A DNA stretch of 64,000 nucleotides. Origin: an uncultured Planctomycetales bacterium. GTDB lineage: Bacteria > Omnitrophota > Gorgyraeia > Gygaellales > Profunditerraquicolaceae. A model generated the notes under the pieces. The model was not told where the DNA came from and searched no databases. It saw nothing but the letters and a program-made list of their open reading frames with translations. The position numbers and the translations under genes are program-made. The stretch covers positions 243,561 to 307,560 of the forward strand of contig CAZRVK010000002.1 of NCBI GenBank assembly GCA_964603585.1, in the 5' to 3' direction. The stretch's first letter is position 1; each line of letters begins with the position of its first letter. Shown here in pieces: positions 11,201-64,000 of the stretch.

Positions 11201-11243
11201 TTTTACGCAAAAAAAATGATTATTAATTTAAAAAGAAGAGGAG

Positions 11244-11759: not shown

Positions 11760-11781
11760 AACATCCGGTTCAGGAGGAGAA

Positions 11782-11982: not shown

Positions 11983-12010
11983 GATGAAAGAATAACAATA
12001 AGGAGAAGAA

Positions 12011-12361: not shown

Positions 12362-12393
12362 CCCGGATACCTGTAGATATAAAAGGACAATGT

Positions 12394-13718: not shown

Positions 13719-13817
13719 TAACAAGAAGATGAAAACCAAAGTTTTTCTAAACGCGGTCTTAGGTATTGGCACAGAGATCCTTTATACCGGGCTGGTCATG
13801 CTGGCTGCTTTATTGGT

Positions 13818-15341
13818 TTGTATATTCTTCGACCTAAAATGATATTACGCCCCGTTAAAGAAGATTTTAAGAATATCGGTTATTATCTGGGCAAGATCAT
13901 TATTGGTTTGGGCTTAATGATGTTTCTCCCCGCGGTCGTCGGAGTGATCTTCGGGGAGACAAATCCGGCATTGGATTATCTAATCGGTGCAGAGACTGCG
14001 CTTATTTGCGGTTTGATTTTAATGAGGCTTTGTTATACCGAGCGCGATCTAAGCTGGATGCAGGGGATGATCGTGGTTTCTCTTGCCTGGTTAGGGGCAA
14101 CGTTATTTGGTTCGATCCCTCTTTATTTAAGCGGGCACTGGAATTCGTTTTTAGACGCCTGTTTTGACACGATGTCCGGTTTTACCACTACCGGATTGGC
14201 CTTAGTGCAAAACTTAGACCATATGGCGTATGCTCATAATTTTTGGCGCCACCTGACCATGTTCATTGGCGGCCAAGGTATTGTAATCGTTGCGCTTTCC
14301 TTCTTTGTCAAAGGGGCCAGCGGGGCGTTTAAAATGTATGTTGGCGAGGCGCGTGATGAAAAGATCATGCCCAACGTCATCAGTACCAGCAGGTTCATCT
14401 GGCTGGTCAGTTTCATATATTTGATCCTGGGTACCTTGTCCCTGGCCCTTACCGGCATCTTGAATGGAATGAAGCCGGAGAATGCTTTTTTTCATGGCGC
14501 ATGCATATTCATGACCGCCTTTGATACCGGAGGTTTTGCTCCCCAATCCCAAAGTATCCTGTATTACCACAGCCTGTGGTTTGAGGTCATAACAATTATC
14601 ATTATGTTCCTTGGTGCATTAAATTTTAAATTGCATTACCATCTTTGGATAGGTAAACGTAATGAGATACTTAAGAATATCGAAACCCAGACTTTTTTTA
14701 TCACCATTATGGTGCTTTTTACCATTACCGCTACCGGCTTATCCCAGGTAGGGGCTTATCCTAAAGCGATTATGCTGTTTAGAAAAGGTTTTTTTCAGTT
14801 AGTCTCCGGGCACACCGGGACGGGATTTCAGACGATTTATCCGGATCAATTCGTGGATGATTGGAATGCGCTGGCTTCTTTAGGCGTGATTTGCGCCATG
14901 ACTTTAGGTGGAGCGGTTTGCTCTACGACCGGCGCAATAAAGATGTTACGGATAGGGATTATCTTTAAGGCCATGGTAGAGGATATCAAGAGGATTATCC
15001 TTCCAGAGAACGCGATTATCGTACAGAGATTCCATCATATCAAAGAAATGTTCTTGGAGGATAAACAGGTCCGGTCTGCTTTATTGATCACTATGGCTTA
15101 TTTAATTCTCTATGCCATAGGCGCGGTTGCAGGTATGTTCTTTGGCTATCCTTTTTTAAGCGCTTTATTCGAATCCACCTCTGCTGCGGCCAATGTCGGG
15201 TTATCGTGCGGTCTGACCAGTCCCGAGATGCCGAATACCTTGAAGGTAATCTATATGTTCCAAATGTGGGCCGGCAGGTTAGAGTTTATGTCGGTATTCA
15301 CCTTGTTTGGGTTTTTACTGGCGGTAATGAAAGGAAAGTAA
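13818..15341 (+). CDS. trkH: TrkH/KtrB-family potassium transporter membrane subunit
   Basis: 507 aa polytopic protein with repeated GFxTTG / TGTGF selectivity-filter-like motifs; follows two trkA genes. Confidence 0.8.
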   Translation: MYILRPKMILRPVKEDFKNIGYYLGKIIIGLGLMMFLPAVVGVIFGETNPALDYLIGAETALICGLILMRLCYTERDLSWMQGMIVVSLAWLGATLFGSIPLYLSGHWNSFLDACFDTMSGFTTTGLALVQNLDHMAYAHNFWRHLTMFIGGQGIVIVALSFFVKGASGAFKMYVGEARDEKIMPNVISTSRFIWLVSFIYLILGTLSLALTGILNGMKPENAFFHGACIFMTAFDTGGFAPQSQSILYYHSLWFEVITIIIMFLGALNFKLHYHLWIGKRNEILKNIETQTFFITIMVLFTITATGLSQVGAYPKAIMLFRKGFFQLVSGHTGTGFQTIYPDQFVDDWNALASLGVICAMTLGGAVCSTTGAIKMLRIGIIFKAMVEDIKRIILPENAIIVQRFHHIKEMFLEDKQVRSALLITMAYLILYAIGAVAGMFFGYPFLSALFESTSAAANVGLSCGLTSPEMPNTLKVIYMFQMWAGRLEFMSVFTLFGFLLAVMKGK

Positions 15342-34363: not shown

Positions 34364-34766
34364 TGCCCTGTCGTCTAATCGGTAGGACTTCAGATTCTGC
34401 CGTGAACCAAACAAACCACTTCGTTGTTGGTTCACGGCAGCCATGAACCGAACGAGCAGGCGAAAAAGGCAAAGCGAGTTCTGGTTCATGGCTGGACTAC
34501 CAAGCAAGATGTATTTCACATACATTTTATGGAGTAAGCAGAGTAAGAAGTTTTATATTGGATTTACAGCGGACCTGATAAGAAGAGTTGATGAACATAA
34601 GAGAGGATGTGTATATTCTACTCAACGGGTGATTAATCCGGAACTTGTTTTTTACGAAGCGTTTCTTTCGGAAAGCGATGCGAGAAGGCGCGAAGGATAT
34701 TTTAAGACAAGCAAGGGAAAGAAGGCGTTGAGAATAATGTTACGGGATACCCTATTTGAATAATTT
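34364..34766 (+). repeat. tandem repeat unit 2 (identical copy)
   Basis: Same as unit 1; directly abuts position 1 of the intact tRNA-Gln. Confidence 0.85.
34509..34763 (+). CDS. GIY-YIG nuclease-family protein, copy 2 (identical)
   Basis: Identical protein to copy 1. Confidence 0.7.
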   Translation: MYFTYILWSKQSKKFYIGFTADLIRRVDEHKRGCVYSTQRVINPELVFYEAFLSESDARRREGYFKTSKGKKALRIMLRDTLFE

Positions 34767-36497
34767 TGCCCTGTCGTCTAATCGGTAGGACTTCAGATTC
34801 TGGATCTGACTATCATGGTTCGAGTCCATGCGGGGCAGCCATTGTTGACAACTATCCGAAACTCCGGATAGTGATGCAGTGGGAACAAGCGCCTTACAGT
34901 CTTCTGTAGGGCGCTTTTCCTTTGTAGAGGCTATTTCGCTAGGGAGGATGCCTTCAAGCGGCTCTTCGATATACATATTGATTACCAGCCTGTCGCTATA
35001 GACGTAAATGTCCTTGATCAGGGCATGTATAAGGCTTTTCTGGGCTTCCGGAGGGGCGTCTTCAAGGTGCTGTATGGCAAAGTTCATGCTGCGGTATACG
35101 AGCTCGCCGGAACAGGCGTTTATGCTGGCAACTCTCTTTTGCGCCTGCAGCTTGTCTATTTCGTCTTCCAGTTTTGCAATCTCCATTTCCAACTCATTCA
35201 TTTTGTCTTTATAAGTGGAGCCTTTGGTGACTGTGTTGCCCATGGCTAATTCCAGCAGTTTATTGGCTTGGAAGCGGAAGCCGTTTAGCTTTGTCTCTCT
35301 TTCTTTTAAGTCGGTCTCTATCTTTTCAAGCTTTGCCTGCGACTCAAGCATGGCGTCTCCCAGGGCCTTTATGATAATGCCCTTGTCCTCAGATGCCCGC
35401 CTAAAATAGTCGATTATAGCTTTGTCAAAAGTAGTTGCGGAGATGCGTGTTGCTTTGCATCCCAGAGCCTGCTTGGAGCGGCTGCACTCATAATAAAAAA
35501 ACTTTCTTCTGTCTCTACCGCCTGAAAAATTGCAGACCATATGGCTTCCGCAGTCGCCGCATCGGAGAATACCGGCGAGGAGGTATTCATAGAATCTTTC
35601 TTTCTGCACAAAGTTGTGGCCGGGAAGCTTGGCGCTCAATATTTTGTTGGCCCGCTCCCAGAGCTTCTCATCGACAATCGCCGGGTGATTGCCTTTGTGG
35701 TATTCTCCGCTGTATTGAATATAGCCTTTGTAAAAAGGATTTTTTAATATCCTTGAAATAACCTGCCTGCGCCATTCCTTGCCGTTTAGAGTTTTTAGCC
35801 CGCGCCTGTGAAGCTCAAGGCCTACCTGCGTAAGCGACCGGTTATCCGCGGCCATCTCCCAGATGATTTTAAGATGCGTAGTTATTTTTTCATCAGGAAC
35901 AATTTTATGCGGCTGGCGGCCGTTAGGAAGCGGCTCTCCGTCTGGTATAAGCTTATATCCATAAGGCAGCATCCCGCCGACCCATTTGCCCTGGCGCACT
36001 CTGGCAATAGCGGATGCTTTCACGCGCTCGCCGGTGAGCTCCCGCTCAAAGGCTGACAAAATCCCAAGTATGCCAATTACTACTCTACCTATGGCGGTTG
36101 AGCTGTCCAAGTTTTCTCTTACCGAGACGAAATCGATTTCCTTTTCTCTGAATAGATCAATAAGCCAGTAGAGGTCCCGGGTATTGCGGGTCAAGCGGTC
36201 AAGGCGGAAGAAGATTATTCCGTCAAATGGGGCGGTTTCTCTACGCACGCGGTCGATAATCATCTGGATGCCGGGCCGGTTGAGATCCTTGCCGGAATAT
36301 CCGTCATCGTCTATTCGGCCTTTTTTGCCTATCTTGGCAAGGTCATATCCAAAAGCGTCCAGCAGATTCTTGCAGTGATAGGCCTGGGAATCCAGGGTGG
36401 TAAAATCTCCCTGGGCCTGGTCATCAGTAGAGCAGCGGGTATAGATTACATAGCGTTTTTTGTTATTTGCATTATTTGTTTTGGCATTCATAATCAT
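34752..36497 (-). CDS. large serine recombinase (phage integrase)
   Basis: N-terminal resolvase catalytic domain (YVIYTRCSTDDQ), recombinase domain, zinc ribbon (CGDCGSHMVC...YYECSRS), coiled coil. Likely start MIMNAK at 36497; the track ORF extends to 36620. C-terminal codons overlap tRNA-Gln antisense. Confidence 0.8.
   Translation of the reverse strand: MIMNAKTNNANNKKRYVIYTRCSTDDQAQGDFTTLDSQAYHCKNLLDAFGYDLAKIGKKGRIDDDGYSGKDLNRPGIQMIIDRVRRETAPFDGIIFFRLDRLTRNTRDLYWLIDLFREKEIDFVSVRENLDSSTAIGRVVIGILGILSAFERELTGERVKASAIARVRQGKWVGGMLPYGYKLIPDGEPLPNGRQPHKIVPDEKITTHLKIIWEMAADNRSLTQVGLELHRRGLKTLNGKEWRRQVISRILKNPFYKGYIQYSGEYHKGNHPAIVDEKLWERANKILSAKLPGHNFVQKERFYEYLLAGILRCGDCGSHMVCNFSGGRDRRKFFYYECSRSKQALGCKATRISATTFDKAIIDYFRRASEDKGIIIKALGDAMLESQAKLEKIETDLKERETKLNGFRFQANKLLELAMGNTVTKGSTYKDKMNELEMEIAKLEDEIDKLQAQKRVASINACSGELVYRSMNFAIQHLEDAPPEAQKSLIHALIKDIYVYSDRLVINMYIEEPLEGILPSEIASTKEKRPTEDCKALVPTASLSGVSDSCQQWLPRMDSNHDSQIQNLKSYRLDDRAKLFK
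34767..34841 (+). tRNA. tRNA-Gln(CTG)
   Basis: U1-A72 acceptor TGCCCTG/CGGGGCA, D arm GTCT-AATCGGTAG-GGAC, anticodon stem TCAGA/TCTGA with loop TTCTGGA, T arm CATGG-TTCGAGT-CCATG, then GCCA. Confidence 0.8.
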
Positions 36498-36571
36498 AGA
36501 ATTCCTACCACATTTTAATGCAGGCATACGCCAGGCAGAAGATCTCCTTCTGCCTGGCGGCGCTAAAACAG

Positions 36572-36915
36572 TTATGCCTGGGCCTTCTGCTTTTTGCCTT
36601 TTCCCCAGCCAGCCTTCCATCTGGCCACTGCCCCGGAGACGATCTCGTTGATGCGCTCCTGGGTTGTGCCTTCCTTGAGGATCTCAACAAGCTCTTCTTT
36701 GTTGATTACCCGGAAGTTTTTGATGCCGCGCTCTTTGGCTTTAAGCATCAGCTCATGGCGCGACGACTCTTTGGCGGCTGATTTGCCGGCTTCAGGCTCT
36801 TTTGTAGCTTCTACCGGCGCGCTGGCTTTTTGAGTTTTTGATTTTTTCTTGCCGTAATGCTTGGCGTGGAGCTTGCTCAAAAACTCTCTGTCTTTCTTTT
36901 TCTGCTCAGCAGTCA
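36572..36915 (-). CDS. hypothetical phage protein with Rho_N/SAP-like motif
   Basis: Basic Lys-rich protein; LKAKERGIKNFRVINKEELVEIL resembles Rho N-terminal/SAP motif. AAGGAGG RBS supports a start at 36915. Confidence 0.4.
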
Positions 36916-53579: not shown

Positions 53580-53980
53580 AAAGACGCATTATCGGGAAAT
53601 ATCTCGGCATCCCTTATCAGCACAGGGCCCGGTCCTTAGCAGGTCTTGACTGCTGGGGATTTTTAAAGTTTGTCTATGCTGATCTAGGCGTACGGCTGTT
53701 TGATATTGAGGACTTAGAATACTCAAAGGTCTGGGGCATGGAAGGCAGAGATTATTTTAAGGAACATTACTTTCATGACTGGTTTCAGGTTAAAGAGCCG
53801 CAAGTTTTAGATGGGATATTGTTTGTGAATTCGAGAAGAATCGCCAATCACGCAGGCATTGTTTTAAGCAACAAAAGATTTATTCACTGCTGCAGGCAGG
53901 GAGTGATTATTTCTAGGATAAACGATCCTTCCTGGCTGCCAAGGATAGAGGGTTTTTACCGGCTAAAGGCGAAAGTATGA
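53504..53980 (+). CDS. tail assembly protein gpK-like (NlpC/P60-type)
   Basis: LDCWGFLKFVYADLGVRL with downstream His: NlpC/P60 Cys-His pattern. Confidence 0.55.
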   Translation: MQTIEQLSEVRGFPFGADTAHLRDVERRIIGKYLGIPYQHRARSLAGLDCWGFLKFVYADLGVRLFDIEDLEYSKVWGMEGRDYFKEHYFHDWFQVKEPQVLDGILFVNSRRIANHAGIVLSNKRFIHCCRQGVIISRINDPSWLPRIEGFYRLKAKV

Positions 53981-56900
53981 TTATCATACGCAATATAACC
54001 AATCCTTTTAAACCAGAAGACGCAGAGCTTAAAAGGATAGATTATTCCCGGCATAAGACTCTGCAGGAAGTTTTAATTGAATCCGGATTTGATTACCAAG
54101 ATAAGCGCGTTATTGTCAGCGGCAAGCGTATTGAGAACCTGTCTGCTTATCTTGATAACGAAGATGAGATTACCATTATCCCTGAAGTCAAAGCGCCGGT
54201 AGTGGCAATTATCTCTGCCATAGTGTCAGCAGTCTGGGCTGTGGCCGTAGCGCATCCGTTCTTATTTGCCTTCTTTGTGCTCTCCATGGGCTATGCCATT
54301 TACCAGAATATGAACCAGCCTAAGATGCCGGATTTTAACCTCGGAGGCGCAGCCGGACTTGATGAGGGCTCGCCTACCTACGGCTGGGACGGTGTGCAAA
54401 CTATCCAGGAAGTAGGAGTGCCGGTAGCAATTGTTTACGGCGAGCATAGAATCGGCGGCAATATTATTAATCAATTCCTTTGGGAAGACGGAGATAACCA
54501 TTATTTAAATGTCCTGCTTGCGCTTTGCGAAGGAGAGATTGAGTCAATAGAAGCAATAGAGATTAACAATAACCCCATTGATAACTTCGGCGGAGTGACG
54601 GTTTCAAAGCGCTTTGGCACAAACTATCAGAACCTTATCAGCAATTTTGAGGATCTGCATAATCTTTATCCGGTTAACGCCAATCTGGTTAAAAATAATC
54701 CTTATGTCTACACCACAGTGGATTCGGATGTGGAAGGCTTTGAGATCCACTTAAGGCTGAATAACGGCCTTTACCAGCAAAGCTCTGGCTCAGGTGATAT
54801 CCAGAGCTGGAGTGTGACTTATAAGGTTGAATACAAACTGCATTCAGAAGGTGCCTATATTGATTTAGGCGAAACTACCATTTCGGAAAAATCCCGCTCA
54901 ACCGTGCGCCGGGTGTTTCGCAAAGCTGGGTTAACTCCTGGACAATACGATATCAGGATCACCCGCACCTCAGATGACAGTTCGCTTTCGCCTTTAAAGC
55001 AGGGCGATTTAACCTTATTTCAGATAGATGAGCTGAAGACTGACGACTTAAGTTATCCAAATACTGCGCTTTTGGGCCTGCAGCTTTTAGCCACAGACCA
55101 GCTTAACGGCGGAACGCCGAATATTACCGCGGTTGTAAAGGGCAAAAAAGTGTTAGTCCCGGATATCCGTAACAGCGGAGTGCCGGTTAACTGGGAAAAC
55201 TACTACTGGGACGGCAGTAATTATCGGCTCTTATCTGATGATACCTTACTTGAATGGGACGGCTCAACTTATGTTGAGGCATACTCGGCTAATCCGGTTT
55301 GGTGCCTAAGGGACTTTATTGTTAATCACCGTTACGGGCTGGGTGAGTTTATTTTAACGCAGCATCTGGACAACGCCTCACTCTTGGAGATGTCGCAGTA
55401 TTGCGAGGAAAAGGTTGCCGACGGAAAAGGCGGTTTTGAGAAACGCTTTAGATTAGATGTAGTTATCGACTCCAATCATAAGGCCCTGGATATCCTCATT
55501 CAGTTAAGCGCTGTATTTAATGCTATGCCTGTATACAGCGCAGGAGGGATTACCTTTAAGATAGACAAACAGACTTTGCCTACTCAGCTTTTCGGCATGG
55601 GTAATATCATCAAGGACAGTTTTGTGCAAAGCTGGAAGACGATTAAGGAAGTGCCGAATGTGATTGAGGTGCAGTTTACAGATAAAGAGAAAAACTACCG
55701 CCAGGAGACCATTGCTTATATTGATGAGCAAGCCTTAGCTAACGGCGAGCCGATGCGCAAAAGCCAGGTGCGTCTATTTACTACCGGCGCAAGTTATGCA
55801 ATACGGGCAGCGCGCTATGCCTTAAAAGTAGCAAAGTATATCAACCGTTCAATTGTTTTTAAGGCAGGCATTGACGCGGTTGCCTGCCAGGCAGGAGATA
55901 TTATTTCTCTTTCGCATGATGTGCCGCAGTGGGGTTTCTCAGGCAGGGTAAAAGCAGGTTCTACTGCGACCTTAGTTAAGCTGGATCGTGCAATGACCAT
56001 TGAGGACGGTAAGTCCTACAAGATACAAATCAGATTTTCCGACGACTCCATTGAGGAAAGCACGATTACCTCGCCAGCCGGAACCTATACCGAGCTTGAA
56101 TGTTTGGCATTTAGTAAAGCACCGCAGGATTTTGATGTTTATGCCATAGGCGAGACAAATAAAGTCAAAAAGGATTTTCGGGTGGTAGCCATTCAACGAG
56201 AAGGCAAGAACGAGGTGCAGATTCAGGCTCTGGAGTATAACGAGGCAGCTTACGATGATTCTGATATTATCCTGCCTCAGAATAATTATTCGGCGCTTTC
56301 CGGCGAGATTCCGCTGGTGACAAATCTTACCTTAACCGAATCCCTGGTGAAGAAAACCGACGGCACCATTGAGAATGCCATTGATGTCTGGTTTGACCGG
56401 CCGGTATTTGTTGATCACTATGTCAAATCATTTGCCAAGGCAAAGATCTATTTGAGCGATGATAACGGTTTAAGCTGGGGAGCCAGGGGTGAAACTGCCG
56501 GCTCTTATTTTAGAATTATCGGCGATATCGTAGACAGACACACCTATAAGGTCAAGGTTACATCATTGACCGATATGGATGAGGAAAGCTCTTTAGCTGC
56601 AGCGCCCGAAGCCTCAATCACAGTCGTGGGCAAGTCTGCGCCTCCAAGCGATGTCTCGACCTTCCTGGTTAACCAGAACAGGGATCAGCTTTATTTCGGC
56701 TGGAGCGAGATTCCGGATGTGGATGTCTGGGGATATGAAATCAGACGCGGGGTAGACTGGGAAAGCGGGGAGGTAATAACATTCCAGCAGGGGACGCATT
56801 ACCTGGCCACCGGCCTTAAAAAAGGCATTGACCAGAAGTTCTGGATTAAGGCCATTGATACCTCAGGCAACTATTCTGCAAACCCCATAGAGTCGGTCCT

Positions 56901-57597
56901 TACTGTAGGGGAAATCCCCTTTAGGAATGTTATCGCCGAGTTTCAGGAGCACCCCTTATGGCAGGGTATAAAGACGAATCTTGAAATCAGTGTTGAAACA
57001 TTGATAATTTCCGACGGGTTTTTATCCGGCGAATACGAAATGCTGGTGCGGGACTTAGGCTATGTGGCAGCAGCTTTCATTGAGATAGAGGCAATTGTTT
57101 CCTTGTCAACCGGCAGAAGATTTGACAGCGATCCCAATGCCAGGTTTAACGACAGTTTGTCTTACCGCTTTACCGGCCAGGAAACCCAGCGTCAGGCAAG
57201 TTTTAAGATTCGCCTCTCAGAAGACAATATCAACTGGTCAGAGTGGCTGGATTATCAGCCCGGAGATTATTACTGCAGATACTTCCAACTAAAGATGATC
57301 TTAGCCAGAGAAAACTTAGGCGATTATGTGACCTGCTCAACCCTGCAGTACCTGGCTGACCTTCCGGACGTGGATGACTTCGGCAGGGATGAAGTCACAG
57401 ATGCAAACGAGGGCAAAGAGGTATTTTTTACCAAGACGTTTCATGAGGAGCCGAATGTGCATATTGAGATAACTTCCGGAGCAGGCGTTTATATACAGTT
57501 TGTGCATAAGACCACAACCAGCTTTAAGGCCAAATTATTTAATGCTCAAGGCGCTGCGCAGACCGGCCATTTTGACTGGCACGGCCATGGAGTATAG
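53977..57597 (+). CDS. host specificity protein gpJ-like with N-terminal gpI-like domain (I-J fusion)
   Basis: 1206 aa; N-terminal ubiquitin-like/TM segment resembles gpI; GEHRIGGNIINQF...LALCEGEIESI resembles the phage-tail_3 domain of J proteins. Confidence 0.7.
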   Translation: MIIIRNITNPFKPEDAELKRIDYSRHKTLQEVLIESGFDYQDKRVIVSGKRIENLSAYLDNEDEITIIPEVKAPVVAIISAIVSAVWAVAVAHPFLFAFFVLSMGYAIYQNMNQPKMPDFNLGGAAGLDEGSPTYGWDGVQTIQEVGVPVAIVYGEHRIGGNIINQFLWEDGDNHYLNVLLALCEGEIESIEAIEINNNPIDNFGGVTVSKRFGTNYQNLISNFEDLHNLYPVNANLVKNNPYVYTTVDSDVEGFEIHLRLNNGLYQQSSGSGDIQSWSVTYKVEYKLHSEGAYIDLGETTISEKSRSTVRRVFRKAGLTPGQYDIRITRTSDDSSLSPLKQGDLTLFQIDELKTDDLSYPNTALLGLQLLATDQLNGGTPNITAVVKGKKVLVPDIRNSGVPVNWENYYWDGSNYRLLSDDTLLEWDGSTYVEAYSANPVWCLRDFIVNHRYGLGEFILTQHLDNASLLEMSQYCEEKVADGKGGFEKRFRLDVVIDSNHKALDILIQLSAVFNAMPVYSAGGITFKIDKQTLPTQLFGMGNIIKDSFVQSWKTIKEVPNVIEVQFTDKEKNYRQETIAYIDEQALANGEPMRKSQVRLFTTGASYAIRAARYALKVAKYINRSIVFKAGIDAVACQAGDIISLSHDVPQWGFSGRVKAGSTATLVKLDRAMTIEDGKSYKIQIRFSDDSIEESTITSPAGTYTELECLAFSKAPQDFDVYAIGETNKVKKDFRVVAIQREGKNEVQIQALEYNEAAYDDSDIILPQNNYSALSGEIPLVTNLTLTESLVKKTDGTIENAIDVWFDRPVFVDHYVKSFAKAKIYLSDDNGLSWGARGETAGSYFRIIGDIVDRHTYKVKVTSLTDMDEESSLAAAPEASITVVGKSAPPSDVSTFLVNQNRDQLYFGWSEIPDVDVWGYEIRRGVDWESGEVITFQQGTHYLATGLKKGIDQKFWIKAIDTSGNYSANPIESVLTVGEIPFRNVIAEFQEHPLWQGIKTNLEISVETLIISDGFLSGEYEMLVRDLGYVAAAFIEIEAIVSLSTGRRFDSDPNARFNDSLSYRFTGQETQRQASFKIRLSEDNINWSEWLDYQPGDYYCRYFQLKMILARENLGDYVTCSTLQYLADLPDVDDFGRDEVTDANEGKEVFFTKTFHEEPNVHIEITSGAGVYIQFVHKTTTSFKAKLFNAQGAAQTGHFDWHGHGV

Positions 57598-57816: not shown

Positions 57817-58091
57817 TCTGCTCAAGATGCAAGCAGGAGATTCCTAAAGACATGGCTTATGTGTTGATAAAGGGAAACATTATTCTGCGCGCTCCTAAAA
57901 AGCGGCCTTTGGTGTTTACCTGTATTGAGCAGGCATTTAATTACGCGCAGGCTCTTTTTATGCACGATGTCTGCTGGATTGAAACCTTAAGAGAGCACGG
58001 CGTTGAGCTTTACGATATGAATAAGGTAGCAGAGCAATACAAGAACAAGGAGGTTTCCGATGGCTTGGGACAAGACAAAGCCGGAAAATGA
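57813..58091 (+). CDS. hypothetical protein (92 aa, CxxC N-terminus)
   Basis: ORF only; MICSRCKQEI. Confidence 0.3.
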   Translation: MICSRCKQEIPKDMAYVLIKGNIILRAPKKRPLVFTCIEQAFNYAQALFMHDVCWIETLREHGVELYDMNKVAEQYKNKEVSDGLGQDKAGK

Positions 58092-58560
58092 CATGCTTTT
58101 GATTAACTTCCCGGCTGCCTGCAGGGCAAACTGGGAAGCCTTGGAGCTAGGCACAGATCCGAATCTTTTAATAACGAATGCTAAAGTAGCGCCCGGTGCC
58201 GGCATAGAAGACACTAAACTTGCGCAGATAGTTACGCCGAATAAGGTAAGCGGCGCAGCTTTAACCGGCCTGGCAAATATTCCTTCTGCAGCAGGGGTCC
58301 TGCCGGAGGTAAACTCGCCGAATAAACTCAAGGCTGATGTCAGCGATACAACCCCGGAGTATTTAGAATCTCTTGTTGATGCAGGGGTATTTCAAATATC
58401 AGCCGGCGACCAGCTGCAGTTAAAAGACGGCGGCGTTCAGACCCAGAAATTAGAAGGCGGAGCTGCTTCGCCCGGCAATAAAAAATACTACGGCACAAAC
58501 GCTTCCGGCACAAAAGGTTTTTTTGATATCGGAGGAGGCACAGCAGTTTACGCGCCTTAA
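58060..58560 (+). CDS. hypothetical tail-fibre-region protein (166 aa)
   Basis: Gly/Ala-rich; position distal to J. Confidence 0.35.
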   Translation: MAWDKTKPENDMLLINFPAACRANWEALELGTDPNLLITNAKVAPGAGIEDTKLAQIVTPNKVSGAALTGLANIPSAAGVLPEVNSPNKLKADVSDTTPEYLESLVDAGVFQISAGDQLQLKDGGVQTQKLEGGAASPGNKKYYGTNASGTKGFFDIGGGTAVYAP

Positions 58561-58563
58561 ATT

Positions 58564-59301
58564 ATGGCACATTTATTACCGCCAAAACAATGCTCGTCAA
58601 ATTTACCCAGTTGGACTGATCCTACGCTTACGGACTTGACCACTGAGATCCGTAAAGTCCACATGGATGAGCTGCGCTCATTTTTAAATAATGAATTTAC
58701 GCGCAGAGGCAAATCTCAGGGCAGTTACACAGACCCTGCGATTACCGCCCTGGTCACTGAAATCCGTAAAGTCCACATGGATGAGCTAAGGTCGGAATTG
58801 TCAGCCTGTAAATCCGGCAGGGGCGAGTCAGGCTACTGCCCGCAGGATAATTCCGGCTGCATGGATTTTACAGACCCGGTAATTACTGCTCTCGTAACAG
58901 AAATTAGAGGAGTGCATTTCCGCCAGGCAAGAAGCAAGGTTGAGGTTTTAATGACCAGCTGCATCTGCGAGACCGAACAGTGCCAGTACTGCGCAGACTG
59001 CGGCTATTACTACCAGACCTGCTCGCATGCAGGCGTAGCCTGCGATAACCATAAATACAACGAATGCATGCATTCTATAAATAATTATTGGATCTGCGCC
59101 AGTATCAATCTGCCCTCGGGGGCAGCGCATCCTTACAAGGCAGCTTCAGGGGATCCGCTTTCAACAACGCCCTGGGACGGCTACGTGCCCTGGGATTGGT
59201 GCGTATATGCTCCGCCCGGGTCTAACTGGGGATCCTGCGAATATCAGGGCGGGCATGACCATACTGCCTGGAACTGCAAATGCAACCCATACACATGGTA
59301 A
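58564..59301 (+). CDS. Cys-rich protein with three tandem about 22-aa repeats (candidate radical-SAM substrate)
   Basis: Repeats TDPTLTDLTTEIRKVHMDELRS / TDPAITALVTEIRKVHMDELRS / TDPVITALVTEIRGVHFRQARS; 17 Cys, 13 of them in the C-terminal about 120 aa, with many Trp/Tyr. Confidence 0.6.
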   Translation: MAHLLPPKQCSSNLPSWTDPTLTDLTTEIRKVHMDELRSFLNNEFTRRGKSQGSYTDPAITALVTEIRKVHMDELRSELSACKSGRGESGYCPQDNSGCMDFTDPVITALVTEIRGVHFRQARSKVEVLMTSCICETEQCQYCADCGYYYQTCSHAGVACDNHKYNECMHSINNYWICASINLPSGAAHPYKAASGDPLSTTPWDGYVPWDWCVYAPPGSNWGSCEYQGGHDHTAWNCKCNPYTW

Positions 59302-59663
59302 ACGACAAATTTTTAACGAAGAAGATTTCAGAACAGGAAAAAGAAAGCAGCGTCAGCGAGCTGCTCCACTGGGTTAAAGACAATCTTAAAGATGAAGATG
59401 CAGCTGAGTTTACCCGGAATAAGTTTAGTACTCTCAGAGCGTTTACAGCAGCGGTGCAGGAAACCTATCAGGCATTAGGGGTAAGGGGAGAAAAAGGCCT
59501 TGAGTCTGATTTTATGCTCGTTATTGCCGGAGGCCGTAAAGCTAAGATTTACGTTTCCTGCTGCATTCCGCTTACCCGGGCGCACAAAGATATATTCCTG
59601 CAGAAGCTGGGCGCCGAGCTGGAAGAGATAGACCAGAATTTAAGCAAATTGACTTGGAGGTAA
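59280..59663 (+). CDS. hypothetical protein (127 aa) between Cys-rich protein and rSAM genes
   Basis: ORF only; overlaps upstream stop. Confidence 0.35.
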   Translation: MQPIHMVNDKFLTKKISEQEKESSVSELLHWVKDNLKDEDAAEFTRNKFSTLRAFTAAVQETYQALGVRGEKGLESDFMLVIAGGRKAKIYVSCCIPLTRAHKDIFLQKLGAELEEIDQNLSKLTWR

Positions 59664-59664
59664 G

Positions 59665-60879
59665 ATGGCGGTATTTGAATTGGCCAGGACAAATATAACA
59701 GGCAGTCTTCCGGAGCAGTGCCGGGATGTAATTAAGAAATACAAATCAGACGGCATGTTTGATATCTGCTCGATTACCAGCGGCAGGCAGGACTATACCA
59801 CAGTCTATTTTTTGATGACCCAGGACTGCAATTTAAACTGCGCATACTGCTATCAGCCGAAGGAATTCCGCAGCAAAGAAGCAGTGATTACTAAACAAAT
59901 TATTGACGATACCATGACTTGGGCTCTAAAGACATTTGATGAGGCTAAGATTAAATTCAGTATCTTTGGCGGCGAGCCGTTTCTAAATACCACGATGATT
60001 AAATATCTCTGTGGTACTTACTGCATGTACCGCTATGTGGTTACTACTAACGGCCTTGTGCTGCTAAAGGACGCTGCCTTGCGCGAATGGGTCTTAAAAC
60101 ATAAATATCATCTGAATTTAAGCGTGAGCATTACCGCGCTTCGCCAGGTCCTTGGCCAAAGATATTTAGATGAGGCAGGGCCGGTGCTGGATCTGATAAA
60201 AGCTAACGGCGGAGATGCGCATTATGTGATTGACGATCCTGACCGCCCGGGCATTTATGAAGAGATTGTCCGACTCTATGAATACGGCATTCCTGTGGTA
60301 AGGGTTTCCTCAGCCAGGCATTGGGATCTGATCAAAGAGAAGAATGAGGCATACAAGTCATTATTCAAAAGAATAGCAGACTACATTTATTTTACCGGAG
60401 AGCCTAAGTTTGGAAGGAGCCAGTGGGATATTGCCTTAAAGAATAACCTTTATAGAAAACTCAAAGGCGTGCCTTTAAAGCAGGTACCGCCCACGTTCTG
60501 CGGTTGCGGTTATTTGTATCTGGCGGTTAATCATAAAGGCGAGATTTATCCCTGCGACTTCTTTGCCAATTTCCCGGAGTTTAAGATCGGCGATATCTAC
60601 TCAGGATTTAACGAGACAGCTTATTTCTTCAAGAAGATGGGCGACTGGATAGATGAGCTTTATGAGGACTGCCGGAACTGCACGGTATGCGAAGGCTGCG
60701 ATATCCGGCTCTGCCCGCGGGCAATGTGCCTGGCAGAAAATTATATCGTAAACGGCAGCCCTTTAAAGCCGGCAGCAAACCACTGCTGGGCGAATAAGGC
60801 TGAGTACGCCAACTTTGAATACATTGCTAAGAAGGCAATTGCTCTGGGCATCGATGAGCTTTATTACAGGGGAAAATGA
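59665..60879 (+). CDS. radical SAM / SPASM-domain protein 1
   Basis: CNLNCAYC (CX3CX2C) at about 59827; C-terminal CGCGYLYLAVNHKGEIYPCD and CRNCTVCEGCDIRLCPRAMC auxiliary-cluster motifs. Confidence 0.75.
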   Translation: MAVFELARTNITGSLPEQCRDVIKKYKSDGMFDICSITSGRQDYTTVYFLMTQDCNLNCAYCYQPKEFRSKEAVITKQIIDDTMTWALKTFDEAKIKFSIFGGEPFLNTTMIKYLCGTYCMYRYVVTTNGLVLLKDAALREWVLKHKYHLNLSVSITALRQVLGQRYLDEAGPVLDLIKANGGDAHYVIDDPDRPGIYEEIVRLYEYGIPVVRVSSARHWDLIKEKNEAYKSLFKRIADYIYFTGEPKFGRSQWDIALKNNLYRKLKGVPLKQVPPTFCGCGYLYLAVNHKGEIYPCDFFANFPEFKIGDIYSGFNETAYFFKKMGDWIDELYEDCRNCTVCEGCDIRLCPRAMCLAENYIVNGSPLKPAANHCWANKAEYANFEYIAKKAIALGIDELYYRGK

Positions 60880-61955
60880 AGATACCGTTTTATAAAACAG
60901 TTTACCTTTATCTTACACATGCCTGCAATTCAGGGTGCAGCTTCTGCTACCGCCGGGGATTATTTACCCGAAACAAACCCGAAAGCCTTGGCCCCCGGTT
61001 TATGAGCGAGGAGACAGCTTTCAGGATCCTGGAGTTTGTATTCTCAGAGCTTAAGCTGGATCCTAAATTTGCCGTCTACTTCTGGGGAGGGGAGCCGTTA
61101 TTAAACTTTACGGTGATAAAAGCTGTGGTTGAAAAACTTCCGCAGTTTTTATACCACACCAACACTAACGGCGCGCCCATAAATCAGGGTATGTATGACT
61201 GGCTGAGCAGGCACAAGAATTTAAGCTTTACCTGGTCCCTGGGCAATGCCTATGAAAAATACGGAAGCTTAAAAGCAAAAGTTTATGCAGAGCCCTGGGG
61301 CTTAAAGCTGGTAAAAGAAAACCCGCAGCATAATGTCAACTTCATGGTCACGCAGTACGGCAGGCTGGCTGAGGATTTTGATTTTTTAATTAATAACGTG
61401 ACCCGCAATGTCACCATAGACCTGGCTACAAGGTTTGAGCATAAAGAGGAGGATCTGGAAGAGTTTGCTGAGCAGTATCTTAAGCTGCTTTTGAAATACA
61501 GAGATGATAAAGAGCTGTATCGGGAAATTAATCCGGCAATACACTCCAACCTTTATTTTAAGGAGTTCGGGTTTAAGGCGCAGGTAGAGGATTTTCATTA
61601 CTGCCGGTCTGGCTTAGAAAGGATTTTTATTGATACCCAGGGCGGTATCTGGCAGTGCGACAACATGTATATCTGCCAGCATAATAAATTAGGGGATATC
61701 GAGAAAGGCATTGATTATTCAAAGCTTGACCTTGCCTGGGAGATCGACGCCAACAGGGAAAAGTATCTTGGGCAGTACTGCCGGGATTGCGAGCTTTACC
61801 GCTTGTGCCCGCGTAATAAATGCTTAGGTCTAAACCTGGAATGGATGGGGGATATGTTTAAGCCGGAGCCGTCATTCTGTAAGATGTGCAAAGTCTTATT
61901 CAAAATAACCAAACGCTACATTGAGCTTGAAAAGGAGGCGAGATTATGCAGCTGA
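60876..61955 (+). CDS. radical SAM / SPASM-domain protein 2
   Basis: CNSGCSFC at about 60924; C-terminal CRDCELYRLCPRNKC and FCKMC. Confidence 0.75.
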   Translation: MKIPFYKTVYLYLTHACNSGCSFCYRRGLFTRNKPESLGPRFMSEETAFRILEFVFSELKLDPKFAVYFWGGEPLLNFTVIKAVVEKLPQFLYHTNTNGAPINQGMYDWLSRHKNLSFTWSLGNAYEKYGSLKAKVYAEPWGLKLVKENPQHNVNFMVTQYGRLAEDFDFLINNVTRNVTIDLATRFEHKEEDLEEFAEQYLKLLLKYRDDKELYREINPAIHSNLYFKEFGFKAQVEDFHYCRSGLERIFIDTQGGIWQCDNMYICQHNKLGDIEKGIDYSKLDLAWEIDANREKYLGQYCRDCELYRLCPRNKCLGLNLEWMGDMFKPEPSFCKMCKVLFKITKRYIELEKEARLCS

Positions 61956-63097
61956 AGGAAAACGAAATCAAAAGCATCGATTTATTCATTACCGAGCAGT
62001 GCAACATGAAATGTGACTACTGCTTTCATAATCAAACTGATGCGGTGTTGTCAGTTGAGCAGGGCAGGAAGATCCTGGAGCGAATGAAGGCATTAAGCCC
62101 GGGTAATCTGCAGATTACCTTTTTTGGCGGCGAGCCACTGTTGTATCCGCAGACCGTATTGCAGCTGGCTGAATACGCCAGAACGCTTTGGCAGCCCGAC
62201 AAAGAAGGAAGGCATACATCGACATTTTCTATTTCAACGAACGGCATGTTCTTTGATGAGGACGTCTTTAAGAAATTTGCCGAGCTTGGCATGGCCATTC
62301 AGGTCAGCTGCGACGGAGATAAAATTACCCAGGAAGAATACCGGCACGGAGACCACGCGCTTATCATTGAAAATATGAAGAAGATTTTAAAGCTAAAGCC
62401 GGATATGAGCGTGCGCATGACTTTCACACCTAAGACAGTAGGCAGGCTGGCTATTAATATCCAGTATCTTCATGAGCTTGGCGTTGCCAAGATTACACAC
62501 CATGCGGTGATGGAAGAGGACTGGACAGAAGAAGCAGTCCAGCAGTACCAGTATCAATTAGCTCAGGTTTATCATTACCGCAGGTACTGCAAAAGGCAGG
62601 ATATCCCTCTTGAGATCGCTTTCATTGATAAGCCCCTCAAAGTCCTTAACGATGAAATCCCTGCAGAGAAGGAATACTGCCAGGCAGGCAAAAGCTACAT
62701 TGCCGTATTAGACAACGGAGATGTTTACCCCTGCCACCGTGCAGCAAGCGCCAGGCTCTTTAAGCTGGGAAGTATCTTTGACGAGATTCCTTTTATCAGG
62801 GGAATCTTTTTAAATATAGACAAGGAATACACCGGCTGCTGGAAAAACTGCAGGCACTCCAGAACCTGCCACAGCTGCATTATTACGCACTTTAAGGTCA
62901 ACCAGGAATTAAACGCGCCTTTAGCAAAATACTGCAAGCTCTGCGCTGTGGAAAACAATCAGGCATTAGGATATCTGCCGGTTGAGTTAGCTGACCGCAG
63001 GGAGCGGATGCTTTATAAAATAGGCAATGTCCTGGTGGATGTTGCCAGGCAGAATGAGGAAATCTTAAGACTGCTCAAGATAAAAGGAGGGGTTTAA
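61946..63097 (+). CDS. radical SAM / SPASM-domain protein 3
   Basis: CNMKCDYC at about 62000; C-terminal CQAGKSYIAVLDNGDVYPCH and CWKNCRHSRTCHSC. Confidence 0.75.
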   Translation: MQLKENEIKSIDLFITEQCNMKCDYCFHNQTDAVLSVEQGRKILERMKALSPGNLQITFFGGEPLLYPQTVLQLAEYARTLWQPDKEGRHTSTFSISTNGMFFDEDVFKKFAELGMAIQVSCDGDKITQEEYRHGDHALIIENMKKILKLKPDMSVRMTFTPKTVGRLAINIQYLHELGVAKITHHAVMEEDWTEEAVQQYQYQLAQVYHYRRYCKRQDIPLEIAFIDKPLKVLNDEIPAEKEYCQAGKSYIAVLDNGDVYPCHRAASARLFKLGSIFDEIPFIRGIFLNIDKEYTGCWKNCRHSRTCHSCIITHFKVNQELNAPLAKYCKLCAVENNQALGYLPVELADRRERMLYKIGNVLVDVARQNEEILRLLKIKGGV

Positions 63098-63099
63098 CC

Positions 63100-63390
63100 A
63101 TGGGCAAAGTTATAAATCACGAGGAGATAACGGTTGAGGATATAGTAAAGAGCTTAAATCCGGCAGTATACAATCCGGGCAGCGGCGAGTCAGCTTCTTT
63201 TGCGCTTATCCATGCCGAAGGCGGGCCGATGAGATATTTTGTCAACGGCCAAAACCCTACGCCGTCATCCGGAGCGCTTTTAGAAGATGGAGACATTGTG
63301 GAGCTGCCGTCAATTTATCATATTAAGGATTTTAGGGTGGTTAAGTCAGGAGACGACCCGGGCAAACTCACCGTAACTTACGAGGCTTGA
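63100..63390 (+). CDS. hypothetical protein (96 aa)
   Basis: ORF with GGAGG RBS. Confidence 0.35.
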   Translation: MGKVINHEEITVEDIVKSLNPAVYNPGSGESASFALIHAEGGPMRYFVNGQNPTPSSGALLEDGDIVELPSIYHIKDFRVVKSGDDPGKLTVTYEA

Positions 63391-63405
63391 AAGGAGGCGT
63401 TAAAT

Positions 63406-63960
63406 ATGCAGCTGCATCTTAAACACAGAAAGGCAAGCAGAATACTTAAAAGGGTCTATGAGATAAATTCCGACGGAGGCCTTCCTAAGACCGGCCAGAG
63501 CATGATTTATCAGCCCGGAGACGACGGCTCATACCAGATGGGCTATCCTCTCGGCGGAGAAGCAAGGTTTATTGACAACGCAGATGGTACGGTAGTCGAT
63601 TTGGCCACGGGTCTTATGTGGATAAAAAATCCGCAGGAGGCAGGATTAGGTTCTCCTATGTACTGGTATGACGCAATCAATGCCTGCGAGAATCTTGACT
63701 TTGCCGGACACAACGACTGGAGGCTTCCGAATATAAACGAGCTGATGTCTATTGTGGATCACTCCAGATATGACCCGGCATTTGACCCGCTCTTTTTTAC
63801 GCCGTTTTCGGATACCTGGACTCCTTGCTGGTCCTCAACTTCAAGCGCGTCTTGGATAGACGGCGCGTGGGCAATGTATCCCTATGACGGCTATAAGACT
63901 ACCTGGGGAAAACCCTGGGATATGTGTTATGTCAGACCTGTAAGAGGCGGGCAGGCTTAA
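63406..63960 (+). CDS. DUF1566 (Lcl C-terminal-like) domain protein
   Basis: GLMWIKNP...NDWRLPNINELMSIVD matches the DUF1566 signature. Confidence 0.6.
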   Translation: MQLHLKHRKASRILKRVYEINSDGGLPKTGQSMIYQPGDDGSYQMGYPLGGEARFIDNADGTVVDLATGLMWIKNPQEAGLGSPMYWYDAINACENLDFAGHNDWRLPNINELMSIVDHSRYDPAFDPLFFTPFSDTWTPCWSSTSSASWIDGAWAMYPYDGYKTTWGKPWDMCYVRPVRGGQA

Positions 63961-64000
63961 GAAACGGAGGATATAAAAATGGCAGGCGAAAAAATTACTG

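Follow-up and report, generated by a model that had tools for sequence, protein, structure and literature searches.

The closest functional analogy to the locus described here is the QhpD/QhpC pair. QhpD is a radical-SAM/SPASM enzyme that installs several intraprotein Cys-to-Asp/Glu thioethers in a small Cys-rich protein, QhpC, the γ-subunit of quinohemoprotein amine dehydrogenase, which stays a structural subunit of a larger assembly rather than being released as a peptide. CteB, the SCIFF maturase (PDB ID code 5WGG; TIGR03974), also forms thioethers in a Cys-rich substrate and binds its leader through an N-terminal RRE. PapB of the PapB/PapA (freyrasin) system (NF047865) carries a radical-SAM cluster and two auxiliary clusters and modifies a short leader–core peptide; hydrogen is abstracted next to the Asp/Glu carboxylate, and the Asp/Glu must lie C-terminal to the Cys (PMC12373016). 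PapB acts as one enzyme, and its product carries an S-to-Cβ/γ thioether. QhpD is likewise a single, nonviral enzyme, whose substrate QhpC, an enzyme subunit, goes on to be exported to the periplasm.

In virions, the HK97 capsid is stabilized by covalent isopeptide bonds that form autocatalytically between capsid subunits. Phage adhesion proteins include S74 fibers and spikes (K1F endosialidase, T5 pb1) and the T2/T6-type gp38 distal adhesins, which are ∼250 aa long, have a rigid conserved scaffold, and are encoded after a fiber gene. We know of none among these that uses enzymatic covalent cross-linking.

Here, we compare these systems with a prophage locus of an anaerobic Omnitrophota bacterium, in a stretch of DNA of 64,000 nt (the window). 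Unlike the PapB system, the phage cassette holds three divergent enzymes within a tail module, without protease or exporter, and its putative target is longer, a protein of 245 aa whose N-terminal domain is folded. Whereas HK97 cross-links its own capsid, the cassette would use dedicated radical enzymes on a tail protein in the cytoplasm. An initial annotation of this DNA had judged the context to be undescribed, and our searches of the literature and of GenBank phages likewise returned no prior account of a radical-SAM–cross-linked phage tail protein. Our results suggest that in some phages a tail protein is chemically cross-linked within the cell, a process for which we found no earlier description.

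A Radical-SAM Cassette in a Prophage Tail Module

The features of the locus, all on the forward strand, are as follows.

53977 to 57597, +: gpJ-like central tail fiber/tip protein (phrog_31 "central tail fiber J," E = 1.8e-152)
58060 to 58560, +: 166-aa fiber-like protein, directly upstream of the Cys-rich gene, ending in ...GFFDIGGGTAVYAP
58564 to 59301, +: 245-aa Cys-rich protein, the proposed substrate, with 17 Cys and 48 homolog clusters
58612 to 58938, +: its three N-terminal repeats, (W)TDPxxTxLxTEIRKVH(M/I)DELR, at residues ∼17–40, 55–78, and 102–125
58960 to 59298, +: its C-terminal Cys-rich domain, residues 133–245
59280 to 59663, +: 127-aa putative accessory protein (o127), between the Cys-rich gene and rSAM1, with probable start M6 at nt 59295
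59665 to 60879, +: rSAM1, 404 aa, CX3CX2C at residues 55–62 (C55–C62), nt 59827–59850
60876 to 61955, +: rSAM2, 359 aa, CX3CX2C at residues 17–24 (C17–C24), nt 60924–60947
61946 to 63097, +: rSAM3, 383 aa, CX3CX2C at residues 19–26 (C19–C26), nt 62000–62023
63100 to 63390, +: 96-aa conserved ORF (o96), between rSAM3 and the DUF1566 gene
63406 to 63960, +: Lcl_C (DUF1566) domain protein (PF07603, E = 8.8e-28)

The gpJ-like gene ends a lambda-like tail module, with TerL, portal, MCP, TMP, gpL-like, and gpK-like genes upstream, in agreement with the original placement of the cassette after gpJ in a lambda-like prophage. The prophage serine integrase is located at a tRNA-Gln gene. The three consecutive radical-SAM ORFs exist exactly as first called, each with its single N-terminal CX3CX2C motif. 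They are separated by a 1-nt gap before rSAM1, a 4-nt overlap between rSAM1 and rSAM2, and a 10-nt overlap between rSAM2 and rSAM3, which makes the suggested translational coupling plausible, and we found no intergenic terminator-like site on the + strand. The flanks needed amendment. The initial annotation had set the triad directly downstream of a 17-Cys repeat protein and upstream of a DUF1566 protein; the former does contain 17 Cys and three repeats, and the latter is an Lcl_C/DUF1566 protein, but o127 and o96, respectively, intervene.

Integrated relatives of the prophage occur in genomes of Candidatus Omnitrophota, among them the complete Ca. Velamenicoccus archaeovorus genome. The Velamenicoccia are predicted to be obligate anaerobes (PMC10066038), and a 2026 paper describes phage associations as unreported to date for Omnitrophota (PMC13452462). 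o96 is a companion of the cassette in one clade only, the lambda-like phages of Omnitrophota. The Lcl_C gene, whose product is probably a lectin-like adhesin, is also clade-specific and lies outside the universal cassette, being absent beside it in loci L001, L002, L053, L055, L056, and L058.

Three Divergent Enzymes Related to PapB

All three ORFs encode radical-SAM/SPASM enzymes. Each contains one CX3CX2C motif, the site of the SAM-cleaving [4Fe-4S] cluster in radical-SAM enzymes, and one GGEP motif, the GGE-type SAM-binding motif that together with the cluster motif marks the radical-SAM superfamily. Scores against Pfam Radical_SAM (PF04055) were 31.8, 27.3, and 60.2 bits for rSAM1, rSAM2, and rSAM3, placing rSAM2 marginally under the cut-off of 29.5 bits. 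A C-terminal Cys cluster of the form CX9-15GX4C ... CX2-3CX5CX2-4C ... C follows in each; rSAM3 has eight C-terminal Cys in the pattern CX17C ... CX3CX5CX2C ... CX2C. The canonical SPASM motif has seven Cys, CX9-15GX4C ... CX2CX5CX3C ... C, for two auxiliary [4Fe-4S] clusters, and all three enzymes belong to this subfamily with a core spacing that departs slightly from the canonical one. rSAM1 and rSAM2 exceeded the 27-bit cut-off of the NCBIfam SPASM domain (TIGR04085; 35.1 and 29.5 bits). rSAM3 scored 19.4 bits against Pfam SPASM (PF13186), under the cut-off of 21.5, and its alignment spans the SPASM region of PapB and CteB. Of the proposed "SPASM/twitch-type" C-terminal segment, the SPASM part is thus borne out, by at least seven Cys and, for rSAM1 and rSAM2, by TIGR04085, and the twitch part is dropped.

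No HMM matched the three enzymes better over their full length than the PapB model NF047865, which aligned end to end (E = 3e-30, 4e-26, and 9e-51 for rSAM1, rSAM2, and rSAM3), but the scores of 105.6, 92.1, and 173.1 bits are well under its equivalog cut-off of 340 bits. By these profile scores, the enzymes are related to the PapB family, yet are not members of it, and like PapB, they have motifs for a radical-SAM cluster and two auxiliary clusters. Conservation is highest in rSAM3, which is also nearest to the PapB family; PapB-family proteins are its closest named relatives (30–35% identity). The CXXX-repeat, SCIFF, QhpD, and CcpM models also matched, as did phrog_1802 for all three enzymes. 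The best score against the SCIFF maturase model (TIGR03974) was 114.7 bits, vs. a cut-off of 425, and against QhpD (TIGR03906), it was 70 bits, vs. 453 (E = 4e-14 to 1.5e-19). Because the scores lie far under every equivalog cut-off, the chemistry could differ from thioether formation, and C–C cyclophane formation, epimerization, or other SPASM chemistry is possible.

Among solved structures, CteB (5WGG) was the best match for rSAM1–3 (E = 1.7e-21, 2.6e-11, and 6.2e-10). The alignment begins only at CteB residue 93, indicating that the phage enzymes, in contrast to CteB, have no RRE; the N-terminal extension of rSAM1, at 45 aa, is too short for one, and none was detectable in o127 by Pfam. Matches to QueE and NrdG are confined to the generic N-terminal core (approximately the first 90–140 residues), which rejects these nonmaturase identities. 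Viperin and pVip were rejected as well, since only profile positions ∼2–105 of 257 or residues 9–124 align and SPASM domains are present. The full-length matches are peptide maturases with SPASM domains, and the Pfam, NCBIfam, and PDB matches agree on the maturase assignment made at the outset.

A Cys-Rich Protein as Candidate Substrate

The 245-aa protein lacks a signal peptide, and searches of Pfam, PHROG, and NCBIfam assigned it to no family; by the NCBIfam result, it is unrelated to SCIFF or QhpC. An AF2 model (mean pLDDT 72) has confident N-terminal helices and did not fold the C-terminal domain with confidence, and PDB and BFVD fold searches gave no match that would support a fiber-tip fold. 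Each N-terminal repeat carries one predicted helix (residues 31–47, 69–83, and 116–131). The repeats are visible in the DNA (D1, 58608–58673 and 58722–58787, 82% identical) and in protein alignments A1 and A3. This repeat module is present in 3542 protein clusters, mostly extracellular multidomain proteins, and is found in RHS, fn3, cadherin, BACON, and PKD surface proteins.

The C-terminal part is a conserved, globular-sized core of 113 residues. Its most conserved stretch is CICExExCxxCxDCGY (residues 133–148, nt 58960–59007), and it ends in an invariant WxCKCNPxxW. Invariant residues are C133, C135, E136, E138, C140, C143, D145, C146, C160, C168, C178, C238, and C240; C92 and D95 are likewise conserved, and conserved Trp, Tyr, and His are also abundant. 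The invariant donor/acceptor-like pairs C92-x2-D95, C133-x2-E136, C135-x2-E138, and C143-x-D145 give the CxxE, CxxD, and CxD order in which PapB substrates present Cys and a C-terminal Asp/Glu, and thus, they would be compatible with PapB/QhpD-type thioether chemistry. The C-terminal domain is not the more variable part (mean entropy 0.77 vs. 0.94 for the N-terminal part). Such low variability is unlike the usual host range-determining tip and counts against reading the protein as one.

The Cassette Recurs in Unrelated Phages

We examined every related locus with at least 3.6 kb of DNA downstream of a full-length Cys-rich homolog (n = 35). In all 35, the Cys-rich gene is followed immediately by two or three orthologous radical-SAM genes, and in 33, rSAM1, rSAM2, and rSAM3 occur in identical order. 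rSAM2 is missing in the two-enzyme variant L055 and displaced in L056. The linkage persists down to 32% identity (L053, L056, and L058, at 32–38%) and across at least six unrelated tail or baseplate contexts, including another siphovirus (L001), myovirus baseplates (L002 and L055), a collagen-fiber phage (L056), and a tail-collar phage (L053). The Cys-rich protein is the sole invariable neighbor of the enzymes; o96, Lcl_C, o127, and the upstream fiber genes all vary. o127 (14 close homologs; no Pfam match; AF2 pLDDT 47) is a frequent cassette member that shifts position: an iterative HMM search placed it between the Cys-rich gene and rSAM1 in the window clade and after rSAM3 in L001 and L056, matched it weakly in L055, and did not find it in L002 and L053.

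Co-occurrence with the enzymes is tied to the C-terminal Cys-rich domain and not to the N-terminal repeats alone. Relatives with only the repeats (P0046–P0048) have signal peptides, and the one such locus examined, that of P0046, has an adjoining thioredoxin/GILT-like gene and no radical-SAM gene nearby. Short relatives of 147–158 aa have CxC/CxxC-rich tails, and both with informative loci (L057 and L060) are radical-SAM linked. On these comparisons, the Cys-rich protein and its radical-SAM genes travel as a unit among unrelated tail and baseplate modules.

Probable Association with Tail Fibers

A fiber-like gene always precedes the cassette. In the window, this is the 166-aa gene, which has only a weak PHROG match (phrog_36859, E = 0.0018); its position and C-terminal motif point to a fiber role. 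The motif, W/F-x(n)-Y-A/G-x, ends the upstream gene in nine contexts, including unrelated cassette-carrying phages (NAVYAS in L001, NAVYGS in L056, HAYYA in L053, DVTYGA in L002, DPRYA in L055, NATYAE in L028 and L036, and ...LPSQSGATSKILTSDGTNVTWEYPKYAP in L060). One homolog, P0185, consists of the Cys-rich protein with a C-terminal Peptidase_S74 (PF13884) intramolecular chaperone (52 bits vs. a cut-off of 22), as in S74 fibers and spikes, and its gene is followed by three radical-SAM genes. Cleavage of P0185 at its Ser would leave ...CSPFSW, the C terminus of the 245-aa window protein, which itself has no Peptidase_S74 domain. The position of the Cys-rich gene after a fiber gene recalls gp38, as does its product when read as a small distal protein of ∼250 aa on a rigid conserved scaffold; we found no similarity to gp38 in sequence or fold.

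The S74 fusion, the W-x(n)-Y-A motif, and the extracellular repeat module argue for a tail-fiber structural protein over a bacteriocin precursor, as does the absence of a signal peptide, protease, and exporter from the cassette. Both readings had been put forward in the initial annotation, and comparative genomics favors the structural one. Under the other, a phage-borne RiPP/bacteriocin-type moron, the repeats would serve as a leader, the enzymes would mature the C-terminal core, and lysis would release a toxin or signal to the advantage of the lysogen or the phage. Prophage-encoded modified peptides do exist (e.g., sublancin on SPβ), and RiPP pathways are where these enzyme families are otherwise found. 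In the window, the cassette is close to the prophage end, a typical moron position; the short radical-SAM–linked relatives resemble RiPP precursors, and the N-terminal repeats are what long and short families share. Nevertheless, we consider a released product unlikely. In the loci examined, neither the cassette nor its flanks contain a leader peptidase, ABC exporter, or immunity gene; the enzymes lack an RRE, and the cassette follows fiber or baseplate genes in unrelated phages, to be followed in L001 by an unannotated 790-aa protein without a Pfam match. Moreover, what would be the leader is an extracellular structural module of wide occurrence, one homolog is fused to a tail-fiber chaperone domain, and the core is both conserved and of globular size. 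A 245-aa precursor with a confidently folded N-terminal domain also departs from a classical RiPP cluster.

The enzymes might instead act elsewhere, on another tail protein, a nucleotide, a cofactor, or a host molecule, with the Cys-rich protein serving as a metal-binding (Zn or Fe–S) tail component or scaffold. Metal binding would suit the closely spaced CxC/CxxC motifs, viperin and pVip models too match the enzymes in their N-terminal cores, and we infer the enzyme–substrate link; this reading is improbable, however, given that the viperin, QueE, and NrdG matches stop within the N-terminal core and the full-length ones are SPASM peptide maturases. No gene but the Cys-rich one always adjoins the enzymes, the upstream fiber proteins hold just zero to three Cys, and invariant acidic residues follow invariant Cys as in PapB/QhpD substrates. 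That the Cys-rich protein is a fiber assembly chaperone not kept in the virion, its activity tuned by the radical-SAM enzymes, is very improbable: its gene does occupy the usual chaperone position directly after the fiber gene (as with Tfa/T4 gp38), and the C-terminal motif common to the upstream proteins could be its binding target, but three dedicated maturases and 13–14 conserved Cys for a transient chaperone would be unprecedented, P0185 makes the protein itself the client of an intramolecular chaperone, and the repeat module is typical of extracellular proteins.

Discussion

The reading that we prefer, and hold to be rather probable from gene and sequence comparison, is that the 245-aa protein is a fiber-associated structural protein whose C-terminal domain is cross-linked by the three radical-SAM/SPASM enzymes. 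It would be made in the cytoplasm without a signal peptide and probably forms a small, trimeric distal knob, docked on the upstream fiber protein at the conserved C terminus of the latter. The three co-transcribed enzymes would modify its C-terminal domain before or during tail assembly, with o127 as a possible accessory factor; as their mutual identity is only 21–25%, each probably acts at different sites. The likeliest chemistry would be a thioether from Cys sulfur to a side-chain carbon, with the Asp/Glu just C-terminal to the donor Cys, as for PapB, CteB, and QhpD. We find it doubtful, although conceivable, that the three N-terminal repeats are built-in docking sites, one per enzyme, in place of a leader and RRE.

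The product of such cross-linking would be a covalently stapled, redox-insensitive knob, in which the staples would replace the disulfides of secreted relatives, bonds precluded in the cytoplasm and not durable where the hosts live, in anoxic, reducing habitats. The fuller proposal is that, in phages of strict anaerobes, a RiPP-like pathway operates on a part of the virion, with three radical-SAM/SPASM enzymes from a mobile "substrate plus maturases" cassette installing thioether or other radical cross-links in a Cys-rich fiber knob; we would believe and doubt it in equal measure.

If true, this would give phage structural proteins their first case of enzymatic covalent maturation by radical chemistry, and radical-SAM peptide maturation would extend beyond small secreted natural products into virus particle construction. 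It would add a new route to covalently robust virion parts, beside disulfides and HK97-type isopeptides. For protein engineers, the cassette would offer a natural set of three RRE-less maturases with a folded domain of ∼110 residues as their putative target. A conserved prophage family in Omnitrophota is documented here; for phages of strict anaerobes, the reading would mean a redox-proof, disulfide-free adhesin, and it would help to explain how phages of obligate anaerobes have stable Cys-rich extracellular domains without an oxidizing compartment.

Results

From ~34.7 kb onward, which is the right half, the window is occupied by a lambda-like siphovirus prophage whose own right end falls beyond it. 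After the recombinase, the plus strand encodes, in order, a ParB-methyltransferase, TerL, the portal, the major head protein, the tape measure, gpL-like and gpK-like proteins, and gpJ, followed by the genes considered here:

34752-36620, minus strand: large serine recombinase (phrog_95, E 1e-107)
34767-34841, plus strand: tRNA-Gln(CTG), abutted by the recombinase
53977-57597, plus strand: gpJ, 1206 aa (phrog_31, E 1.8e-152)
between gpJ and the 166-aa ORF, plus strand: two small ORFs
58060-58560, plus strand: 166-aa ORF
58564-59301, plus strand: Cys-rich 245-aa ORF, the proposed substrate
59280-59663, plus strand: 127-aa ORF
59665-60879, plus strand: rSAM1
60876-61955, plus strand: rSAM2
61946-63097, plus strand: rSAM3
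after rSAM3: 96-aa ORF (o96), then the Lcl_C/DUF1566 protein

At its 3′ end, the recombinase ORF runs antisense through the entire tRNA-Gln(CTG) gene, and this overlap may mark the attachment site. The host portion of the window has a separate three-tRNA cluster (Cys-GCA, Leu-TAA, Val-GAC) at 7980-8383. Small zinc-ribbon-like ORFs (CxxC...CxxC) between gpJ and the fibre gene are common to both Omnitrophota phage clades (57813-58091 in the window, 6806-6943 in the related locus L028). Ca. Velamenicoccus archaeovorus carries a related prophage; there, two small membrane proteins are all that come after these genes ahead of a host TetR gene, which places the cassette (the Cys-rich and rSAM genes) at the extreme end of the late operon. 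The 166-aa and Cys-rich ORFs share a reading frame in the window, with one stop codon and one further codon between them. Read-through fusing the two was rejected since their frames differ in L004, and the common frame was treated as coincidence.

The initial annotation had proposed three translationally coupled radical-SAM/SPASM genes, and the enzyme type was borne out. Each ORF contains one CX3CX2C motif, one GGEP and, towards the C-terminus, Cys residues clustered at SPASM-type spacing; Pfam Radical_SAM and Fer4_12 match all three, and the NCBIfam SPASM model exceeds its cut-off for rSAM1 and rSAM2. The junctions measure +1, -4, and -10 nt, and the plus strand is free of intergenic terminator-like sites; these features fit a single late transcript and make translational coupling plausible. 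For all three enzymes, the full-length NCBIfam matches are led by PapB, a ranthipeptide maturase (E 3e-30, 4e-26, and 9e-51), followed by CXXX-repeat, SCIFF, nif11, CcpM, and QhpD maturases, but each enzyme misses every equivalog cut-off by far. The top solved structure is in each case CteB (5WGG); the alignment starts only at CteB residue 93, and the phage enzymes therefore lack the leader-recognition element (RRE) of RiPP enzymes. Non-maturase families, raised at the outset as the alternative, matched the generic N-terminal core only (viperin, pVip, QueE, NrdG), and with coverage so confined the viperin, QueE, and NrdG identities were rejected. Mutual identity of just 21-25% marks the three enzymes as old paralogues and not the product of a recent triplication.

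We fetched loci carrying homologues from IMG/VR (37) and from genomes (11), along with 10 further contigs, and scored each of their ORFs against the window proteins. Of the loci that extend at least 3.6 kb downstream of a full-length Cys-rich homologue, all 35 have rSAM genes directly 3′ of it, and 33 have orthologues of rSAM1, rSAM2, and rSAM3 in this order; contigs with shorter downstream DNA all show the start of the same gene series up to the contig end. The presence of o96, Lcl_C, the 127-aa ORF, and the upstream gene varies between loci, and the Cys-rich protein is the sole invariable partner of the rSAM genes. This linkage is kept where substrate identity falls to 32-38% (L053, L056, L058) and in tail machines of unrelated kinds: another siphovirus (L001), myovirus baseplates that include gpV, PAAR, gp25, and P2-I genes (L002, L055), a collagen-fibre phage (L056), and a tail-collar-fibre phage (L053).

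Two loci carry variant cassettes. L055 has rSAM1 and rSAM3 only, and L056 has three extra SPASM-only proteins and a methyltransferase. In the divergent L056 cassette (added genes at 10498-12893 and 13378-14352), the trio consists of tandem 258-285-aa proteins that Pfam flags for SPASM only, with an N-terminal CPLxxxHxxCPI in place of CX3CX2C; the methyltransferase and a displaced rSAM2-like gene follow. In L026 and L028, rSAM2 is 89-90% identical to that of the window, rSAM1 74%, and the substrate 64%, a mosaicism that points to recombination between cassettes.

The 127-aa ORF evolves fast (~41% identity where the substrate has ~78%). It lies between substrate and rSAM1 in the window clade and after rSAM3 in L001 and L056, is weakly detected in L055, and is absent from L002 and L053. 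Its product may be a chaperone or recognition factor; as a discrete RRE/PqqD-like factor it has no Pfam match, and its AF2 model reaches a pLDDT of 47 with only ~15 close homologues.

The Cys-rich protein has 48 homologue clusters and, like the 127-aa and 96-aa ORFs, no family in Pfam, NCBIfam, PHROGs, or PADLOC. Three copies of (W)TDPxxTAxxTxIRKVHIDELR span residues 17-125 (nt 58612-58938), each with one confident helix predicted by AF2. When 1.84 billion representative proteins were searched by profile, this module turned up, in two or three copies of one helix each, in 3542 clusters (50% identity), most often as the C-terminal end of surface proteins of the RHS, fn3, cadherin, BACON, or PKD type. 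Pfam has no model for the module, which on these matches is a candidate new extracellular domain family (e.g., clusters P0198-P0328). Proteins with the full-length architecture are scarce, at 13 clusters with E < 1e-30. Shorter proteins of 147-158 aa make up a sister family (L057 191-634, L060 161-616, P0192, P0194, P0205, P0230, P0254), which joins the same three repeats to a short tail rich in CxC/CxxC, for example ECICNCNYCACDCNCTCHCCTCNCDHYHSW. Three rSAM genes follow the sister gene in L060 and two in L057; upstream of it in L060 is a fibre gene with the ending ...WEYPKYAP.

The Cys-rich domain, in which 13-14 Cys are conserved, covers residues 133-245. Conservation of the whole protein peaks at CICExExCxxCxDCGY, and the C-terminal end is WxCKCNPxxW. 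All invariant acidic residues of the domain follow an invariant Cys, 1-2 residues further towards the C-terminus (C133/E136, C135/E138, C143/D145), and the linker pair C92/D95 obeys the same rule. AF2 confidence for the C-terminal domain is low (pLDDT 50-70), and its Cys geometry was therefore not interpreted; Foldseek of the model against PDB and BFVD returned nothing below E 0.5. A hypervariable receptor-binding tip is unsupported, the Cys-rich domain being no more variable than the N-terminal part.

Fusions and neighbors of the Cys-rich protein bear on two readings, a tail structural protein or the precursor of a phage-borne RiPP/bacteriocin matured by the rSAM enzymes. The precursor reading draws on the position of the cassette at the prophage end in the window and on the sister proteins, both of whose informative loci (L057, L060) are rSAM-linked. 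However, homologue P0185 extends beyond the conserved C-terminus, where Peptidase_S74 ("chaperone of endosialidase") scores 52 bits against a cut-off of 22; tail fibres and spikes use this self-cleaving domain as their trimerisation chaperone. If P0185 were cut at the S74 Ser, its new end, ...CSPFSW, would match the CNPYTW at which the window protein ends. Three rSAM genes also follow P0185. Homologue P0009 has an additional 175-aa N-terminal domain with no Pfam match, which likewise speaks against a precursor. The gene 5′ of the cassette varies between phages in sequence and size (69-348 aa), yet in nine contexts its product ends in a common short motif, W/F-x(2-7)-[AVT]-x-Y-[AG]-x. These proteins are otherwise unrelated and several are fibre-like in sequence; the shared end may serve the Cys-rich protein as a docking peptide.

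C-terminal ends of proteins encoded 5′ of the cassette
window, 58510-58560 (motif), plus strand: TAVYAP
L001, 9545-9991: NAVYAS
L002, 9147-9986: DVTYGA
L028, 6946-7986: NATYAE
L053, 6181-6390: HAYYA
L055, 6084-6974: DPRYA
L056, 6621-7025: NAVYGS
L060, 3-125: ...LPSQSGATSKILTSDGTNVTWEYPKYAP

No signal peptide, protease, exporter, or immunity gene was found in any cassette locus, and the defining accessories of a RiPP cluster are missing from the cassette. Signal peptides do occur on the repeat relatives P0046-P0048, which have a different Cys-rich C-terminus; P0046, the only one with a locus examined, has a thioredoxin/GILT-like neighbor and no rSAM genes. Export presumably allows those relatives to use disulfides; the phage versions, assembled in the cytoplasm, are accompanied by radical enzymes instead. 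We consider the RiPP/bacteriocin precursor unlikely and the Cys-rich protein probably a tail-associated structural protein.

Discussion

By analogy, the cassette most probably works like PapB, CteB, or QhpD, although the phage enzymes fall outside all three equivalog families. In PapB substrates the acceptor, a carboxylate residue, must come after the donor Cys in the chain (PMC12373016). The invariant pairs of the Cys-rich protein have this same geometry. QhpD acts on QhpC with the same Cys-then-acid arrangement, and this pair is the nearest functional analogy: QhpC is a small Cys-rich subunit that is stapled by an rSAM/SPASM enzyme and stays in a larger assembly. That the Cys-rich protein is the rSAM substrate is very likely, and the balance tips slightly toward thioethers as the bonds made. 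The whole proposal of a thioether-bearing tail structural protein as substrate we hold to be reasonably likely; multiplying its parts would make it doubtful, but we treated the three components as strongly correlated.

The cassette loci closest to the window are on long contigs of Omnitrophota MAGs and in Ca. Velamenicoccus archaeovorus LiM, whose genome is complete (NZ_CP019384, ~1.853-1.870 Mb; substrate 80% identical). Many Candidatus Omnitrophota MAGs, like this genome, have a prophage of the family integrated (L041-L051). For a few matches the bin is labelled Planctomycetales, Saccharibacteria, or Dehalococcoidales, and mis-binning may explain this. Velamenicoccia are predicted obligate anaerobes (PMC10066038), a host that would suit oxygen-sensitive rSAM enzymes and fit a rationale of thioether instead of disulfide. 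According to a 2026 paper, phage associations of Omnitrophota have not been reported to date (PMC13452462).

The cassette is missing from 50,697 GenBank phage records, with no match to blastn of 58000-64000 or to tblastn of the Cys-rich protein; rSAM3 matches there only below 30% identity, in unannotated gut phages and jumbo-phage rSAM genes. The initial annotation knew of no description of this context, and full-text literature searches found no account that links rSAM maturases to a protein of the phage tail. A lone rSAM maturase in a cyanophage, labelled an "antibiotic synthesis gene" (PMC12801897), was judged not comparable as a precedent. What is new here would be a known enzyme chemistry on a new target class and in a new biological setting.
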